Shown: positions 451-16,616 of the stretch, one piece after another | How positions within the stretch are numbered: position 1 is the stretch's first letter | Layout: each line of letters starts with the position of its first letter | NCBI GenBank assembly: GCA_019348555.1 | Contig: JAHWJH010000003.1 | Location: 1 to 44,631, forward strand | DNA from: Actinomycetota bacterium | GTDB lineage: Bacteria; Actinomycetota; Acidimicrobiia; Acidimicrobiales; CADCSY01 | Direction: 5' to 3' | Length of the DNA: 44,631 bases | Notes under the pieces: generated by a model | Database searches by the model: none | Seen by the model: only the letters and a program-made list of their open reading frames with translations | Told to the model about the DNA's origin: nothing | Translations under genes and position numbers: made by a program

Positions 451-1380
451 TCAGCGGGAAGGATTCCGTATCTTCTGTCGGAGGTCGGTCAGCCACGCAT
501 CGGCCGCCTGCCAGGCGGCCTCTGCATCCCGGCGCAGGGCGTCACCGTGGTGTCCCGCCGCCGGATACGAACCGAGGAACTTCACATCGGCCAGCTTGGC
601 CTTGAGGTCCCTGAGGCAGTCGGCCACGAGCTCGTCGGCCACGTGGCCCTCGAAGTCGATGATGAAGCAGTACTCGCCGAGGCTGCGCTTCGTCGGGCGC
701 GACTCCAACTTGGTCAGGTTCACCGCCCGCGCGGCGAACTCCTGGAGGATCGCCAGCAGGCTGCCGGGGCGGTCGGCGTGCTGGAAGCACACCACCGTGG
801 TCTTGTCGTGGCCGGTCGGACCCATGATCCCGTTCCGCCCGACGAGCACGAAGCGGGTGGCGTTCTCGGGGTGGTCCTCGATGTCGGCCGCCACGACCTC
901 GAGGCCATAGAGCTCCGCCGCCAGCGAGGGTGCGACGGCCGCCATGCCCGGGGTCCCCGCACTGACGAGGCGGGCGGCTTCGGCGGTGGAGTTGGCGGCG
1001 ATCGTCGCCACACCGGGGAGCTCCCGGGCCAGGTAGCCCCGTACCTGGGCGGTGGCGTGGGGCATCGAGATCACGCTGGTGATCTGATCGAGCTGGGTGC
1101 CCGGCGCCGCCAGGAGGTTGAGCTGGATGCCCACGACCACTTCGCGCTGGATGAGCAGGTCGGTCTCGAAGGCCAGGGTGTCGAGCGTGACGTTCACGCT
1201 GCCCTCGATGGAGTTCTCGATCGGCACGAAGCCCAGGTCGACCTCGCCCTCGGCGGTTGCCGCCAGCACCTCGCCGATCGACCCCAGCGGCAGGAGCTTC
1301 CCCTGCGCCAGATCGTCCTGGGTGAGCAGGGCCTGCTCGGTGAAGGTGCCGTGAGGACCGAGGAAGCCGATGCTCGTCAC
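451..1380 (-). CDS. pheA: Prephenate dehydratase with ACT domain
   Basis: FLGPHGTFTEQA, VPIENSIEGSV, NATRFV, DRPGSL, NLTKLESRP and FLGSYP motifs. GTG start at 1380 with TACCCT 8 nt upstream; the ORF-track extension to 2448 is antisense to larB. Confidence 0.95.
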   Translation of the reverse strand: MTSIGFLGPHGTFTEQALLTQDDLAQGKLLPLGSIGEVLAATAEGEVDLGFVPIENSIEGSVNVTLDTLAFETDLLIQREVVVGIQLNLLAAPGTQLDQITSVISMPHATAQVRGYLARELPGVATIAANSTAEAARLVSAGTPGMAAVAPSLAAELYGLEVVAADIEDHPENATRFVLVGRNGIMGPTGHDKTTVVCFQHADRPGSLLAILQEFAARAVNLTKLESRPTKRSLGEYCFIIDFEGHVADELVADCLRDLKAKLADVKFLGSYPAAGHHGDALRRDAEAAWQAADAWLTDLRQKIRNPSR

Positions 1381-1464
1381 GGAGCGACAGGGTAGACAGA
1401 TCCCTCCCCCGGTCGGACGTGGTCGTCCGATGACCGCCGACGAGGGACGGTCGGGCAGGATGAG

Positions 1465-2232
1465 GTGGTGGACGAGGCCGCCCTCGTGAAGCTTCTCGAC
1501 GATGTGCGACGTGGGGTGACGACGGCCGACGAGGCGGTGCTCGTGCTCCGGAGGCTGCCCTTCGTCGACCTCGGCTTCGCCCGGGTCGATCACCATCGCG
1601 GGCTGCGCCAGGGCGTCGCCGAAGCGGTCTACGCCCCAGGCAAGACGGCCCGGCAGTGCGCCGCCATCGTGGTCGAGCTGCTCGACCAGCCAGGAGGCCC
1701 GGTCCTGCTGACCAGGGCCAACTCCGAGCAGATCGACGCCTGCTCGGAGGTCTCGCCCGGAGGGCGGGTGACCGGCACGACGGTCGTATGGCGGCCGTCG
1801 GCCACGCGGCCTGAGCGGACGGTCGTGATGACGGCGGGTACCGCCGATCTCGCCGTGGCCGACGAGTGCGTCGCCACCCTCAACGCCTACGGCTTCGAGC
1901 CGTCGCGCCTCGACGACGTCGGCGTCGCCGGGTTGCACCGCCTCTTCGCCGACATCGACGTGGTGGCCGACGCCGACGCGGTGGTGGTCATCGCCGGCAT
2001 GGAGGGTGCCCTCGCCAGCGTCATCGGCGGGATCACGCCCGCACCGGTCATCGCCGTGCCGACCAGCGTGGGAAGGGGCGCGGGCCTGGAGGGCGTCACC
2101 GCCCTGCTCGGGATGATGGCCTCGTGCGCTGCGGGCGTCACCGTGGTGGGCATCGACAACGGCTTCGGGGCCGGGTGCGCCGTGGCCCGCATCCTCGACG
2201 TGCGCACGAAGTCGTCGGAGCACCGTGGCTGA
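1465..2232 (+). CDS. larB: Nickel-pincer cofactor biosynthesis protein LarB (PurE/AIR-carboxylase-like)
   Basis: FARVDHHRGLRQG, AGTADL, DVGVAGLHRL, AGMEGALASV, VPTSVG, SCAAGVTVVGIDNGFGA. Start may be the GTG at 1468. Confidence 0.9.
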   Translation: MVDEAALVKLLDDVRRGVTTADEAVLVLRRLPFVDLGFARVDHHRGLRQGVAEAVYAPGKTARQCAAIVVELLDQPGGPVLLTRANSEQIDACSEVSPGGRVTGTTVVWRPSATRPERTVVMTAGTADLAVADECVATLNAYGFEPSRLDDVGVAGLHRLFADIDVVADADAVVVIAGMEGALASVIGGITPAPVIAVPTSVGRGAGLEGVTALLGMMASCAAGVTVVGIDNGFGAGCAVARILDVRTKSSEHRG

Positions 2233-3535
2233 GGGCCCGCCCACGGTGGCCTGGTTCCACTGCTTCGCCGGCATCGCCGGTGACATGGCGCTGGGCGCCC
2301 TGGTCGACGCCGGCGCCGACCTCGACGAGGTCCGTGCCCTCGTCGGTCGCATCCCGGTGACCGGCTGGAGCATCGAGGCGGAGGCGACCATGCGCAACGG
2401 CATAGCGGCCACCCGGGTCGTCGTCGCCGTCGAGCCCACGACGGTCACCCGGACCTACGCCCACATCGACGACCTGCTCGACCAGGCCCGCCTGCCCGAG
2501 CGGGTCCGCGATCGGGCGGCGGCCACGTTCGCGGCCATCGCCGCCGTGGAGGGCCGGCTGCACCGTCGACCGGTCGAGCAGGTGCACTTCCACGAGCTCG
2601 GCAGCGTCGACGCCATCGTCGACATCGTGGGAGTGGCTTCGGCGCTCGAGGTGCTCGGCGTCGAGCAGGTGTACGCCAGCCCTGTGGCCACCGGGCTCGG
2701 GATGGTGCGCAGCGCCCACGGCATGCTCCCGAACCCGGCTCCGGCGGTGGTGGAGCTGTTGTCGGGGGCGCCCACCCACGGGGTCGATGTCGCCGTGGAG
2801 CTGACCACCCCCACGGGTGCCGGCCTGCTCGCCGCCCTCTGTGAGGGCTGGGGAGCGATGCCGGCGATGACGATCGCCAGCAGCGGGTTCGGAGCCGGTA
2901 CCCGTGAGCTCGAGGAGTTGCCCAACCTCACCCAGGTGGTGATCGGTCGCCGAGTGACGGCCGATCTGGCCGGCCACGGCCAGCCGGTGGTGAAGCTGGA
3001 GGTGAACGTCGACGACGTCACCGGGGAGGTGCTCGCCCACGCCGTCGCCAGCCTGCTCGACGCCGGCGCGCACGACGCCTGGACCACGCCGATCGTGATG
3101 AAGAAGGGCCGCCCGGCCCACCTCGTCAGCGTGCTCGCCGACCCGGCCACCGCTGCCGAGCTGGCGGCGGTGCTGGCGCTCGAGACCGGCAGCCTGGGCG
3201 TGCGTTGGATGGTGCAGGAGCGACGGCCCGCGCCGCGCCACTTCGACGAGGTCGACGTGGGTGGGGTCGGCGTACGGGTGAAGGTGGCCGCCGACCGCGT
3301 CAAGGTGGAGCACGACGATGCCGCAGCCGCTGCCGCCGCCCTCGGTCTTCGGCTGTCCGAGGTCGTGACCCGGGCCGAAGAGGCCTGGCGCCGCCGGAGA
3401 GATCAAGGCCCGCTCTCCTCGGTACCCGACCACGACGACACCGTGGTCGACCTCCGCCCGAACGGACCGCTCCCGCCGGCTCCGCCGCACCCGCCACAGC
3501 CCTCGCCAGGTGGGCCTCCAGGCGAAGCCGGCTGA
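2225..3535 (+). CDS. larC: Nickel insertion protein LarC (single ORF)
   Basis: CFAGIAGDMALGAL, VHFHELGSVDAIVDI, HGMLPNPAPA, ELTTPTGA, NVDDVTGE, MKKGRP, ETGSLGVR. Overlaps larB by 8 nt. Confidence 0.92.
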   Translation: MAEGPPTVAWFHCFAGIAGDMALGALVDAGADLDEVRALVGRIPVTGWSIEAEATMRNGIAATRVVVAVEPTTVTRTYAHIDDLLDQARLPERVRDRAAATFAAIAAVEGRLHRRPVEQVHFHELGSVDAIVDIVGVASALEVLGVEQVYASPVATGLGMVRSAHGMLPNPAPAVVELLSGAPTHGVDVAVELTTPTGAGLLAALCEGWGAMPAMTIASSGFGAGTRELEELPNLTQVVIGRRVTADLAGHGQPVVKLEVNVDDVTGEVLAHAVASLLDAGAHDAWTTPIVMKKGRPAHLVSVLADPATAAELAAVLALETGSLGVRWMVQERRPAPRHFDEVDVGGVGVRVKVAADRVKVEHDDAAAAAAALGLRLSEVVTRAEEAWRRRRDQGPLSSVPDHDDTVVDLRPNGPLPPAPPHPPQPSPGGPPGEAG

Positions 3536-3550
3536 GCACCGGGAGCCGGC

Positions 3551-4369
3551 GTGGAGGAGCTCGCGTACGCCTCGGCGCTGGCTCTGGCCGTGGTGATGGC
3601 CGTCGCCGGAGTGGCCAAGCTCCGGCATCGAGGTGTCACCGAGCGGGCGTTCCGCAGTCAGGGCCTGGCGTGGCCCGGGGCGTTGGCCATCGCCGTGCCC
3701 GCCACCGAGGTGGTCCTTGCCCTCGGGCTGGTCGTCGTCCCCGACTGGGCCGGCATGGCCACGCTGGCGGTGCTCGCCGGCTTCACCACGTTCCTCGTGC
3801 AGTCGGTCCGGCGGGGCCGAGCGCTGGGGTGCGGGTGCTTCGGGTCGACCCGTCCTCGCCCGGTGGGTGGCGTGGAGCTGGCTCGCAACGGCGTGCTGAT
3901 GGCCGGCGCCGGCTTCGTGGCGTTGGTGGCCGAGGCACCGAACTTGCCGGGGCTCACCTCGATCGTCGTGGTAGCCGTGGTCGCCGCCACATCGGCCGTG
4001 GGGCTGGCTCACCTCGGCCGTCGCCCCTGGCCGAACGATCCTGCACGACGCCAGGGGCTGCCTCGGGGAAGCAGGGCGCCGGCTCTTGCGGGTGGTCTCA
4101 CCGCTCCGGCGGGCGAGACCACCCTCGTGGCGTTCGTGGCCCCGAGTTGCCGAGGGTGCGCCGAGCTGCTGGCCGCCCTCGACCAGATGCCCCGCTCCGA
4201 GGTCGCGGTGCGGGTGGTCGCTCTCGACGACGACTCATCCGCGACCTTCACCGCCTATGGGGTCCGCTCGGCGCCGTATCTGGTCGTGGTGGACGAAGAC
4301 GGAGAGGTGCGCTCTTCGGGGCCGGCCACGTCGTTCGCCGACATCCGTCGCATCATGGCGCGCCAGTGA
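3551..4369 (+). CDS. MauE/DoxX-family membrane protein fused to a thioredoxin-like CxxC domain
   Basis: N-terminal TM helices with AGVAKL and CGCFG...ARN (MauE-like). C-terminal FVAPSCRGC and YGVRSAPYLVVVDEDG (thioredoxin fold). Confidence 0.75.
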   Translation: MEELAYASALALAVVMAVAGVAKLRHRGVTERAFRSQGLAWPGALAIAVPATEVVLALGLVVVPDWAGMATLAVLAGFTTFLVQSVRRGRALGCGCFGSTRPRPVGGVELARNGVLMAGAGFVALVAEAPNLPGLTSIVVVAVVAATSAVGLAHLGRRPWPNDPARRQGLPRGSRAPALAGGLTAPAGETTLVAFVAPSCRGCAELLAALDQMPRSEVAVRVVALDDDSSATFTAYGVRSAPYLVVVDEDGEVRSSGPATSFADIRRIMARQ

Positions 4370-13913: not shown

Positions 13914-14533
13914 GGGGTCGCCTGGTCGTCCTCGAAGGCGGTGAGGCCTGCGGGAAGTCCACCCAGGCGGCTCGCCTGGCCGAACGGCTCGGAGCGGTGC
14001 TGACCCGGGAGCCGGGCGGCACGGTGGTGGGCGAGCGCATCCGCGATCTGGTGCTCGACCCTGTCGCTGCCGGCATCGTGCCCAGGGCGGAGGCGCTCCT
14101 CATGGCCGCCGCTCGGGCCCAGCACGTCGCCGAGGTGGTGGAGCCGGCGCTCGCCAGCGGCCGCCACGTGGTGAGCGACCGCTTCACCGGCTCCTCGCTC
14201 GCCTACCAGGGCCACGGTCGGGGGCTGTCGGTCGACGACCTGCGCTCGCTGTCGCACTTCGCCACCGGTGGGCTGGAGGCCGACGTCGTCGTGCTGCTCC
14301 AGCTCGATCCCGTGCAGGCAGCCGCCCGACGCCACCGTCGGCCCGACCGGATGGAAGCCGCCGGGACGGCCTTCCACCGCCGTGTCGGCGAGGGGTTCGC
14401 CGCCCTGGCCGCCGCTGACCCGGGGCGCTGGGTGGCTGTCGACGGCGCCGGTACCGAGGACGAGGTGGCCGAGCGGGTGTGGTCGGCGGTGCGGTCCCGC
14501 CTGCTCGACCCCACCGAGGCGACGAAGGGGTGA
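13910..14533 (+). CDS. tmk: Thymidylate kinase
   Basis: LEGGEACGKST P-loop, TREPGGT, ARAQHV, SDRF, AYQG. GTGA overlap with the MFS stop. Confidence 0.95.
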   Translation: MRGRLVVLEGGEACGKSTQAARLAERLGAVLTREPGGTVVGERIRDLVLDPVAAGIVPRAEALLMAAARAQHVAEVVEPALASGRHVVSDRFTGSSLAYQGHGRGLSVDDLRSLSHFATGGLEADVVVLLQLDPVQAAARRHRRPDRMEAAGTAFHRRVGEGFAALAAADPGRWVAVDGAGTEDEVAERVWSAVRSRLLDPTEATKG

Positions 14534-15618
14534 CGCCGACGACGAGCGAGGCCACCGACGTCTTCGCCGGCATCGTCGGACAGCCGGAGCTGGTGACCCA
14601 GCTGCGGGCCGCCGCCGCCCGGCCCGTGCACGCCTACCTTCTCGTCGGCCCGCCGGGGGCGGGTACCGCCAGCGCCGCCCGTGCCTTCGCCGCCGCCTTG
14701 CTGTGCCACAACGGCGGCTGCGGCCGGTGCCGGAACTGCCGGCTGGTGCTGGCCGGGGCCCACCCCGACGCCACCACCTTCGTGCCGGAAGGGGCCTTCC
14801 TGCGGGTCAGCGACGCCGAGGAGATCACCAGGATGGCCATGCGCAGCCCGGTCGAGGGCCGTCGCAAGGTGCTGGTGCTGGCCGACTTCCACCGGGTCCA
14901 AAAGGTCGGCCCGGCTCTGCTCAAGACCATCGAGGAGCCTCCGCCGAGCACGGTGTTCGTGGTGCTGGCCGACAGCGTGCCGACCGAGCTGGTGACCATC
15001 GCCTCCCGCTGCGTGCGCATCGACGTGGCTCCCCTCGGCGTTGCCACCCTGGCCGGAATCCTCGTCGCCGAAGGCGTCGAGGCCGATGCCGCTCGCACCG
15101 CAGCCGACGCTGCCGGGGGCAACCTCGACCGCGCCCGGCTCCTGGCGTCGGACGTCGGCCTGGCCGCCCGGCGGGAGGCATGGTGGCGGGTGCCCGAGCG
15201 CCTCGACGGCACCGGCGCCGCCGTTGCCGTGGTCGTCGCCGAGCTGATGGCGCTGGTGGAAGCGGCCGCCGAGCCGCTGCGCCGCGCCCAGGCCGAGGCG
15301 CTGGCCGAGCTGGCCTCTGACCTGGCGGCCGCAGGCGGTCGGGGCGGCGGTCGAGCGGGCATGGAGGCGGCGCACAAGCGGGCGCTTCGTCGCCACCGCG
15401 CCGACGAGCTGCGCTTCGGCCTCGCCACCCTGGGCGCCCGGTACCGCCACGAGCTGGACCCCGCCCCCCTCGATGCGGGTGCGCTCGCCGCTCCGGTGGC
15501 CGCCATCGACGCCATCGTCGACGCCGCCCGGGCCCTGGTCCGCAACCCCAACGAGCAGCTGCTGCTCCAAGCCCTGTTCTTGAGGCTCCCGCCTCTGGAA
15601 AGCACCGCTCGGAGCTAA
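14530..15618 (+). CDS. holB: DNA polymerase III delta' subunit
   Basis: VHAYLLVGPPG, Zn motif CHNGGCGRCRNC, HPD, LLKTIEEPP, TIASRC. Follows tmk with a GTGA overlap. Confidence 0.88.
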   Translation: MTPTTSEATDVFAGIVGQPELVTQLRAAAARPVHAYLLVGPPGAGTASAARAFAAALLCHNGGCGRCRNCRLVLAGAHPDATTFVPEGAFLRVSDAEEITRMAMRSPVEGRRKVLVLADFHRVQKVGPALLKTIEEPPPSTVFVVLADSVPTELVTIASRCVRIDVAPLGVATLAGILVAEGVEADAARTAADAAGGNLDRARLLASDVGLAARREAWWRVPERLDGTGAAVAVVVAELMALVEAAAEPLRRAQAEALAELASDLAAAGGRGGGRAGMEAAHKRALRRHRADELRFGLATLGARYRHELDPAPLDAGALAAPVAAIDAIVDAARALVRNPNEQLLLQALFLRLPPLESTARS

Positions 15619-15631
15619 CCTCGCCGCGTCC

Positions 15632-15707
15632 GCCCGGGTAGCTCAGACGGCAGAGCGACGCTCTCGTAAAGCGTAGGTCAGGGGTTCGATTCCCCTCTCG
15701 GGCTCCA
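15632..15707 (+). tRNA. tRNA-Thr (anticodon CGT), CCA encoded
   Basis: GCCCGGGTAGCTCAGACGGCAGAGCGACGCTCTCGTAAAGCGTAGGTCAGGGGTTCGATTCCCCTCTCGGGCTCCA; anticodon arm ACGCT-CTCGTAA-AGCGT. TAACCT (-10-like) at 15616-15621. Confidence 0.95.
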
Positions 15708-16321
15708 TGGCCGACCCCTCCGAGTTCAGCGACCAGGCGATGGAGTTCATGCCGTCGCTCTACTCGGCGGCGATGCGCATGACCCGCAACCCGTCGGACG
15801 CCGAAGATCTGGTGCAGGAGACCTACCTTCGGGCCTTCCGCGGCTTCGGCGGCTTCCGGCAGGGCACCAACCTCAAAGCCTGGCTCTACCGCATCCTGAC
15901 CAACACCTACATCAACCGCTACCGGGCCAAGCAACGACGCCCCGACGAGAGCAGCCTCGACGACGTGGAGGACTTCTACCTCTACCGCCGCCTGGGCGGG
16001 TTGGAGGGCGCCAGCGCCAGCCGCAGCGCCGAGGACGAGCTGCTCGAGCTCTTCAGCGAGGCCGAAGTCAAGGACGCGGTGGAGTCGCTCCCCGAGCAGT
16101 TCCGCATCGCCGTGCTGCTGGCCGACGTCGAAGGCTTCTCGTACAAGGAGATCGCCGAGATCCTCGACATCCCCATGGGCACCGTCATGAGCCGGATCCA
16201 TCGCGGAAGAAAGGGCTTGCAGAAGAGGTTGTACGACTTCGCCGCCCGGCGACGACTGGTCGACGAGCCCGCCGCCCAGCCGATCCAGGGCGTCGAGCAG
16301 GAGGAAGCCACCCGTGGATGA
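15707..16321 (+). CDS. sigR: ECF sigma factor, SigR/SigH type
   Basis: [73 protein letters not shown]. Followed by a ZAS anti-sigma gene. Confidence 0.9.
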
Positions 16322-16616
16322 CCAGGACAGCTCCGAGCGACCGCTCCCCCGACTCGACCCGGGCGATCTCGCCCCTGGTGCCGAGTGCCGGGAGTCCCTG
16401 ACCGAGCTGTACGGCTTCCTCGACGGGGAGCTGACCGTCGAGCGCCGGCGGCTGATCCAACTGCACCTCGAGGACTGCCACGGATGCCTGGAGGCCTACG
16501 ACTTCGAGGCCGAGCTGCGCATCGTGGTGTCCATGTGCTGTCGGGAGAATGAGCTCCCGGCGGGCCTGTTGGAGCGTGTCGCCGAAGCGCTGCGCCAGCT
16601 TCCCGACGCCGACTGA
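16314..16616 (+). CDS. rsrA: Zinc-binding anti-sigma factor, RsrA/RshA type
   Basis: C...LYGFLDGEL...HLEDCHGC (HxxxCxxC), then CC...PAGL. 8-nt overlap with the sigma gene. Confidence 0.85.

Follow-up and report, generated by a model that had tools for sequence, protein, structure and literature searches.

In the enterobacterial thrU-tyrU-glyT-thrT-tufB operon, tRNAs including a tRNA-Thr are co-transcribed with a protein gene and split from it by processing, and a spacer of about 100 nt containing a Shine-Dalgarno (SD) sequence lies between the two. In animal mitochondria, RNase P and RNase Z/ELAC2 excise flanking tRNAs and release leaderless mRNAs (PMC12242768, PMC6924987), and shapes resembling tRNAs have been described as the t-elements of plant mitochondria (PMC1920247), which act as RNase P/Z signals at mRNA ends, and as the tRNA-like elements of Haloferax volcanii (PMC4946936). 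The literature searched, from which most subscription journals were absent, yielded such organellar and archaeal cases and no bacterial leaderless mRNA formed by tRNA excision. Here we describe a locus in a 44,631-nt stretch (the window; positions 1 to 44,631 of contig JAHWJH010000003.1, assembly GCA_019348555.1) of a soil Actinomycetota bacterium of the order Acidimicrobiales, in which a tRNA-Thr(CGU) gene ends two nucleotides before the start codon of sigR, the gene of an extracytoplasmic function (ECF) sigma factor that is followed by rsrA, the gene of a zinc anti-sigma factor (ZAS). As in the tufB operon, a tRNA gene stands ahead of a protein gene; the difference is that here the spacer measures 2 nt and has no SD sequence. 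The likeness to mitochondrial punctuation is that the tRNA abuts the start codon of a gene with neither a promoter nor an SD sequence of its own, and cleavage at the tRNA 3′ end would set the 5′ end of the mRNA. Unlike the mitochondrial case, this is a single locus on the chromosome of a free-living bacterium, the enzymes differ, and canonical RNase Z was not found.

The junction has no room for a conventional leader (Table 1). A15707 is used twice, as the third letter of an in-register CCA (C15705, C15706, A15707) and as the A of the sigR ATG. This overlap, the central claim of the initial annotation, was confirmed by the sequence, by ARAGORN, which called tRNA-Thr(cgt) at 15632..15707, and by the Rfam tRNA family RF00005, which scored 66.7 bits on 15632-15704 against a gathering score of 29 for the cloverleaf. 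The acceptor strands are GCCCGGG (15632-15638) and CTCGGGC (15697-15703), followed by the discriminator T15704, and the sigR open reading frame (ORF) opens at the first ATG/GTG/TTG past an in-frame TAG at 15674-15676. No sigma-70-like promoter and no terminator-like site was detected in 15300-16000, the gap between holB and the tRNA included. There is no hexamer of the form TANNNT within 14 nt of the ATG, nor an SD-like word 3-12 nt ahead of it, and scans for both thus upheld the earlier remark that nothing of either kind lies between tRNA and ATG and that the only −10-like hexamer, TAACCT, precedes the tRNA. The sigR gene of the window accordingly lacks the usual mark of a leaderless gene (TANNNT ending about 6–8 nt before the start) as well as an SD sequence; its anatomy is that of a tRNA-punctuated mRNA, with a 2-nt spacer free of promoter-like and terminator-like sites. 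From its sequence and place, TAACCT is the predicted promoter of a tRNA-sigR-rsrA transcript.

The genome to which the window belongs (G000) comprises 2.76 Mb in 283 contigs, is 85.75% complete and carries 5.57% contamination or strain mixture. An assembly collapse at the junction, raised in the initial annotation as an alternative, was rejected, as contigs of other sequencing runs bridge the tRNA and sigR: record 28 of run X7 (15676-15807) and record 4 of run X2 (15676-15900) show zero differences, and record 13 of run X4 (15660-15793), from a diverged relative, spans the junction with 13 substitutions and no gap. Run X2 belongs to the same study as the possible source run, whereas X7 and X4 come from other studies.

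The start codon was examined by alignment of sigR loci from 41 related genomes, one pattern match and 48 of 80 named contig loci (L112-L159); the remaining 32 named loci, mostly Microbacteriaceae, were left out. The resulting set held 91 loci, 89 of them distinct. ATG or GTG stood at aligned residue 1 in 88 of the 89, the exception being L131, which aligned only from residue 7. Codons 2, 3 and 7 vary synonymously (GCC/GCT/GCG, GAC/GAT and TTC/TTT, respectively), and upstream of the start codon nothing is common to the loci. Homology to the SigH and sigma-R structures and to TIGR02947 starts at residues 5-7, and a start at the later methionines M12 or M15 would therefore delete conserved protein. 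On these sequence comparisons the ATG at 15707 is the correct start of sigR, as the initial annotation had it.

Near-zero spacing between tRNA and start codon, which the initial annotation had left as a question, recurs in relatives. A true tRNA-Thr(CGU) lies 1-4 nt from the sigR start in 12 loci belonging to at least four lineages. The spacers read CC (G000, G006), CCC (G005, G003), CTC (G001, G010), CCT (G009), CGT (G008), CGGG (G048, G018), C (G145) and CTG (L129); the locus of G003 (L006), also the partner of G004 in the sigR tree, is flagged as unpublished. A tRNA-like remnant stands 3 nt from the start in two further loci (G007, G004). Of the 11 genomes of the window's genus, 10 gave a sigR match, and in each of these a tRNA or tRNA-like copy stands against the ATG; G002, which is 79% complete, gave none. 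The abutment also occurs in genus g9 of the same family (G048, G018), in G145 of another family, and in L129, whose tRNA shows compensatory changes in the anticodon and T stems. G145 was recovered by a loose pattern scan that matched 134 of 401 genomes, mostly by chance hits in coding DNA, and that otherwise returned the known cases; because it was found through the feature itself, it does not enter any frequency. By these comparisons, tRNA and start codon abut in a conserved manner, and the case of the window is not a one-off.

The letters and length of the spacer drift yet it stays at 4 nt or less, whereas the −10 hexamer lies anywhere from 6 to 41 nt ahead of the tRNA. Such a TANNNT hexamer was present ahead of the tRNA or tRNA-like 5′ end in all 12 abutting loci examined, and L129 has TAACCT 11 nt ahead of its tRNA. 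Between tRNA and start, none of the 13 abutting loci scanned had TANNNT within 14 nt or an SD-like word, and the fourteenth (L129), read by eye, had neither in the last 30 nt before the ATG. An in-register CCA occurs only in G000 and G006, the other 10 of the 12 true-tRNA loci having other letters, and the emphasis that the initial annotation placed on the encoded CCA is not sustained: given that C74 is always encoded (see below), a one-base overlap of CCA and ATG is at chance level. The overlap is, on this evidence, an accident of the 2-nt spacer, and the CCA is incidental. L129 and L130 are titled Bifidobacterium breve and Burkholderiales; their sigR shares 72% identity with the Acidimicrobiales gene described here and lies in matching context, and these labels of metagenome-assembled genomes are probably wrong.

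Orthologues without abutment indicate what kind of gene sigR is elsewhere. TANNNT was located 5-11 nt before the sigR start in 59 of the 89 distinct loci, at 5 nt in 1, 6 nt in 28, 7 nt in 13, 8 nt in 10, 9 nt in 3, 10 nt in 3 and 11 nt in 1. This far exceeds chance, which we roughly estimated at about 2% per locus at this base composition. Judged by sequence, such spacing is what transcripts starting at or beside the start codon would show, and the distances of 8-11 nt in 20 of the 59 imply leaders of a few nucleotides. A further 15 loci had other upstream kinds, such as TAGAAAG or AAGG-type words that are possibly SD sequences; this class includes L129, which the script placed there although it is a tRNA abutment, and the locus of G014 (L019), flagged as unpublished.

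In several genera, tRNA-Thr(CGU) lies 28-85 nt upstream of sigR, and in others 266-678 nt. The synteny is therefore old, and the spacer is what varies. Genus g7 has no tRNA here, and TAGGGTCGGTCCGCCC stands immediately before the ATG; this string equals the promoter string of G007 minus the tRNA-like element, joined to the ATG after four more letters. The sequences suggest a path in which a tRNA, about 70 nt with a promoter and a leaderless sigR lost the spacer, after which 3′ processing of the tRNA would have supplied the 5′ end of the mRNA.

The remnants in G007 and G004 are each 76 nt long, the length of the tRNA plus spacer, and each stands 3 nt from the ATG. G007 also carries a true tRNA-Thr(CGU) with encoded CCA 159 nt upstream of the 76-nt element; in G004 the 3′ part of a second tRNA lies at the contig end. 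Both remnants retain GCCCGGG and CTCGGGC, their acceptor strands being identical to each other in 14 of 14 letters. The anticodon loop is largely kept, as is the variable region; a G+C-rich hairpin stands in place of the D arm. In their minimum-energy folds, both form the acceptor stem. The T arm is intact and formed in G007, whereas in G004 it contains one A·G mismatch and does not form in the minimum-energy fold. Neither remnant was called by ARAGORN or by the Rfam tRNA model at E≤1. TAGGGT or TAAGGT lies exactly 6 nt before the first G of the remnant, so a transcript would begin at the acceptor stem. A third variant, partial, was present at a loose end in run X5, and a metagenome scan for more remnants returned one contig, identical to the G007 locus over the region, and nothing new.

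These features would fit a pseudo-tRNA kept as a cutting signal. Like t-elements, the remnants of G007 and G004 derive from tRNAs, have ceased to be tRNAs and stand exactly at a predicted mRNA 5′ end. Unlike t-elements, they are bacterial and occur in two genomes and one metagenomic variant, and the element of the window itself is a genuine tRNA. A true tRNA and a pseudo-tRNA copy stand in tandem in G007, with its 159-nt spacer, and in G004 (L009, L044), with about 40 nt common at their 3′ ends, which would favour deletion through recombination; exchange between tRNA and copy could, on sequence grounds, convert one arrangement into the other.

Whether one precursor could give rise to both a tRNA and an intact sigR mRNA depends on how the tRNA 3′ end is made. 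In G000, ARAGORN made 72 calls, 23 of which were left out (arrays on contigs C64 and C81, two odd calls, and acceptor stems of fewer than 6 pairs). A C at position 74 was encoded in 49 of the 49 core tRNA genes that remained and the full CCA in 12 of them, about a quarter. C74 was likewise encoded in 27/27 and 18/18 distinct tRNAs of the relatives' loci (45/45) and in all 32 tRNA genes of G033. The window's tRNA-Ser(TGA) at 330-414 (− strand) has it too. This universality points to a rule of 3′ processing or repair in this clade or in actinobacteria. Its attribution to the absence of RNase Z was considered and rejected, as G033 has a 280-bit RNase Z match and yet encodes C74 in 32/32.

Enzymes relevant to such processing were present in G000: a CCA-adding enzyme in two pieces (304 and 246 bits), RNase E/G (480 bits) and RNase PH (347 bits). 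A search of G000 for RNase P RNA (RF00010) gave no match, which is uninformative at 85.75% completeness. TIGR02651 matches of 234-286 bits, the canonical RNase Z, occurred only in the order-level genomes G028, G033 and G039. The best candidate, seen in relatives, was a 333-aa metallo-beta-lactamase (MBL)-fold protein; its top family was the RNase Z model NF000806, which it matched weakly, with 108.6 bits where the cut-off is 363. In G000 the protein runs off a contig end after its first 30 residues.

A related account of tRNA maturation comes from Propionibacterium acnes, an actinobacterium without an obvious tRNase Z, in which about half of the tRNA genes encode CCA and differential RNA sequencing (dRNA-seq) placed the cuts within the encoded CCA "always between the Cs" (PMC3848588). 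An endonucleolytic cut between C74 and C75 fits the universal encoded C74 observed here. P. acnes differs in belonging to another class of Actinomycetota, and it is not known to have a downstream mRNA that depends on the cut. By analogy with those data, we infer cleavage at 15704/15705 or 15705/15706. If the cut fell between the Cs, the leader would measure 1 nt in G000 (C-AUG) but 2 nt for most members of its genus, 3 nt in g9 and 0 nt in G145. Because C74 is always encoded and a CCA-adding enzyme is present, one precursor can yield both products. The dilemma posed by the initial annotation, in which a single precursor could not give both the tRNA and the sigR mRNA, dissolves if the cut is made after position 73 or 74. 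Its proposal of an RNase Z-type cut releasing a near-leaderless mRNA holds as far as an endonucleolytic cut is the best reading; the part that names RNase Z does not fare as well, the canonical enzyme not having been found in this family.

Taken together, we consider it reasonably probable, on sequence grounds, that cleavage of a joint tRNA-sigR-rsrA transcript where the tRNA ends leaves a near-leaderless sigR mRNA. The starting points are observations: the anatomy of the locus, the conserved start, the spacing of 1-4 nt, the lack of a promoter or SD sequence between tRNA and ATG, the leaderless-type orthologues and the enzymes. In the proposed sequence of events, tRNA-Thr(CGU), sigR and rsrA would be transcribed as a single RNA from the predicted housekeeping-type promoter TAACCT, to which read-through from holB may add. 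RNase P would remove the short 5′ leader, an endonuclease would cut the tRNA free on its 3′ side, more probably behind C74 than behind the discriminator, and the CCA-adding enzyme would complete the tRNA. The remaining sigR-rsrA mRNA would carry its AUG 1-2 nt from a monophosphorylated 5′ end and would be translated leaderless like the orthologues. In the minimum-energy fold of the cut product, the first 11 nt from C15706, AUG included, are unpaired.

Several points weigh against this scheme. That the three genes share a transcript, that it is cut and where, and that the product is translated are steps that we infer. A tRNA promoter would drive sigR-rsrA constitutively, which would leave control to RsrA and to mRNA decay, and a SigR-type autoregulatory promoter was not found. 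For canonical RNase Z (TIGR02651), 25 genomes of family f1 were searched, G000 among them; the enzyme was not found, the highest score being 91 bits. The in-register CCA of G000 and G006 could block an RNase Z of the Bacillus subtilis type. In the sigR tree, G007 pairs with G008 and G004 with G003, pairings that bootstrapping left unsettled, and the two remnant loci are not sisters; with only two or three sequences, selection on the remnant fold is not demonstrable. For leaderless translation in mycobacteria, reporter work found it both necessary and sufficient that the RNA open with ATG or GTG (PMC4633059), and a leader of 1-4 nt may translate poorly under this rule, which wants RTG at the 5′ end.

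Maturation of the Escherichia coli type, in which the precursor would be cut inside sigR and trimmed back by RNase PH and other 3′ exonucleases, would leave no usable sigR mRNA and turn the abutment into a tolerated deletion, with sigR expressed weakly or not from this RNA; we consider this unlikely. It draws on the presence of RNase PH and RNase E/G without a detected canonical RNase Z, on the in-register CCA of G000, and on the P. acnes tRNAs with encoded CCA that are also cut a few nucleotides downstream (PMC3848588). It leaves unaccounted for a spacer that varies in sequence yet measures 1-4 nt in each of 14 loci from at least four lineages, and the intact, conserved sigR and rsrA for which no other promoter is visible. 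Most abutting loci, moreover, are without CCA and hence need a cut at position 73/74 anyway, and the G+C-rich region is a poor RNase E site by the argument advanced for P. acnes (PMC3848588).

A cryptic promoter in the 3′ half of the tRNA, giving a primary leaderless sigR transcript at or near A15707, appears quite unlikely. Actinobacterial promoters need little beyond a −10 hexamer, and TAGGTC at 15673-15678 resembles the TAGGGT of the orthologues, but it lacks the final T, lies 28 nt upstream and falls where the sequence is fixed by the T arm and acceptor. None of the 13 scanned abutting loci had TANNNT within 14 nt of the start, and the remnants keep both the 5′ acceptor strand and a −10 hexamer of their own before it, neither of which an internal promoter would need.

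Translation of the uncut precursor, with the tRNA serving as a structured 5′ leader and the AUG used without SD sequence or cleavage, is very unlikely: the acceptor and T helices tie up the 20 nt that precede the AUG, and tRNA precursors are quickly processed in all known bacteria, even if SD-less internal initiation exists in Actinobacteria and the downstream piece folds with its first 11 nt, counted from C15706, free of pairing. Initiation at M12 (15740) or M15 (15749), whose ATGs are conserved in many relatives and which would leave the first 11-14 codons as an untranslated leader, is hardly credible given that residues 5-11 align to the SigH/sigma-R structures and TIGR02947, that codons 2, 3 and 7 show synonymous variation behind the conserved ATG/GTG, and that 15707-15749 contains no TANNNT.

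Excision of the tRNA by an endonuclease, as favoured here, has a further version, tentative and rather doubtful, in which sigR of this clade, as the gene of the thiol-stress sigma factor, has lost its own promoter and relies wholly on excision of tRNA-Thr or, in some species, the pseudo-tRNA after C74, with the supply of SigR and RsrA following tRNA transcription and processing capacity. A link between stress and tRNA processing is speculation, and the tuning of sigma factor output by tRNA processing that the initial annotation proposed is likewise speculative. If excision does operate, the logic of mitochondria, in which a tRNA is excised and a leaderless mRNA left behind, would hold in an ordinary bacterial chromosome, and a gene needing only a 5′ end at its AUG could survive the loss of its promoter with the help of an adjacent tRNA. 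The locus would then offer a natural reporter for the enzyme that cuts tRNA 3′ ends in actinobacteria without RNase Z, and the one-base overlap of tRNA and coding sequence would be real and not an annotation error.

The identity of the two protein genes was assessed by profile and structure matches. The sigma protein scored 244.3 bits with TIGR02947 (SigH_actino), 7 bits short of the cut-off of 251.55, and matched SigH of Mycobacterium tuberculosis (5zx2_F) with 203 bits (E 3e-59) over residues 6-183. The rsrA product belongs to the RsrA family, scoring 68.6 bits with TIGR03988 (antisig_RsrA) against a cut-off of 62.5, and holds HLEDCHGC, a HxxxCxxC motif of the ZAS type. The pair thus resembles SigR-RsrA of Streptomyces and SigH-RshA of mycobacteria, in which a SigH/SigR-type ECF sigma factor is followed by a ZAS anti-sigma factor with HxxxCxxC. 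The GTG start of rsrA lies 8 nt inside the end of sigR (16314-16321, GTGGATGA), and this overlap suggests translational coupling of sigma and anti-sigma factor.

Streptomyces sigR is controlled at translation through a sigma-R′ isoform and a GTC start repressed by IF3 (PMC5472188). Here, unlike in Streptomyces and mycobacteria, the start is ATG, there is no long isoform, a tRNA occupies the promoter's place, and the autoregulatory motif was not found. The Streptomyces case also raised the possibility of a GTC start inside the tRNA, which was dropped because neither homology nor conservation extends upstream of the ATG. The SigR-type promoter motif, taken as GGAAT, about 18 nt and GTT, had no match upstream of the window's sigR; among 43 loci searched up to 500 nt upstream it matched in one and in none of the other 42. 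In the window overall it occurred 5 times, against 8.9 in shuffles.

Table 1. Coordinates of the features at the tRNA-Thr–sigR junction and of the adjoining genes in the window.
Feature	Position	Strand	Remarks
holB (DNA polymerase III delta′ subunit)	14479..15618	+	ORF; gene upstream of the tRNA
TAACCT, −10-like hexamer (TANNNT)	15616..15621	+	Overlaps the holB TAA stop; 10 nt ahead of the tRNA 5′ end; predicted promoter
tRNA-Thr(CGU), position 1 to discriminator T	15632..15704	+	ARAGORN; Rfam RF00005
CC, tRNA positions 74-75, the entire spacer to the start codon	15705..15706	+	
sigR/sigH-type ECF sigma factor gene, 204 aa	15707..16321	+	ATG at 15707-15709
rsrA-type zinc anti-sigma factor gene, GTG start	16314..16616	+	TIGR03988; ORF translation

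The holB assignment rests on 141 bits with TIGR00678 and on 201 bits with NCBIfam NF005926, the latter below its cut-off of 300; holB, tRNA-Thr, sigR and rsrA all lie on the + strand.

Elsewhere in G000, contig C64 (about 1124-4127) carries around 22 tRNA genes 1-5 nt apart, many of them with CCA and including a second tRNA-Thr(CGT), and contig C81 carries a smaller array. The C64 array could be a mobile-element or phage array, or contamination. A number of tRNA species, for example Arg-ACG, Leu-CAG and Trp-CCA, are present in two or three copies whose ends are identical, which fits the contamination or strain mixture estimated for this assembly. Eight candidate ORFs of at least 80 aa have their start within 13 nt of a tRNA end in G000, and apart from sigR no tRNA abuts a convincing one. 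Only sigR (G+C content at third codon positions, GC3, 0.92) and an ORF at +11 on contig C40 (GC3 0.89) look coding. On C40, a tRNA-Leu(TAA) at 1690-1783 is followed, 11 nt past the end called by ARAGORN, by the ATG of a 436-aa ORF, a possible second short-leader gene. In L106 (G245), L108 (G405), L109 (G215) and L110 (G081), with Arg-CCT, Leu-CAG, Ala-CGC and Leu-TAG tRNAs, respectively, a putative ATG/GTG start lies 1-7 nt past the discriminator, with ORFs of 185 to more than 258 aa. Judging from these sequences, tRNA-punctuated genes in the order may extend beyond sigR.

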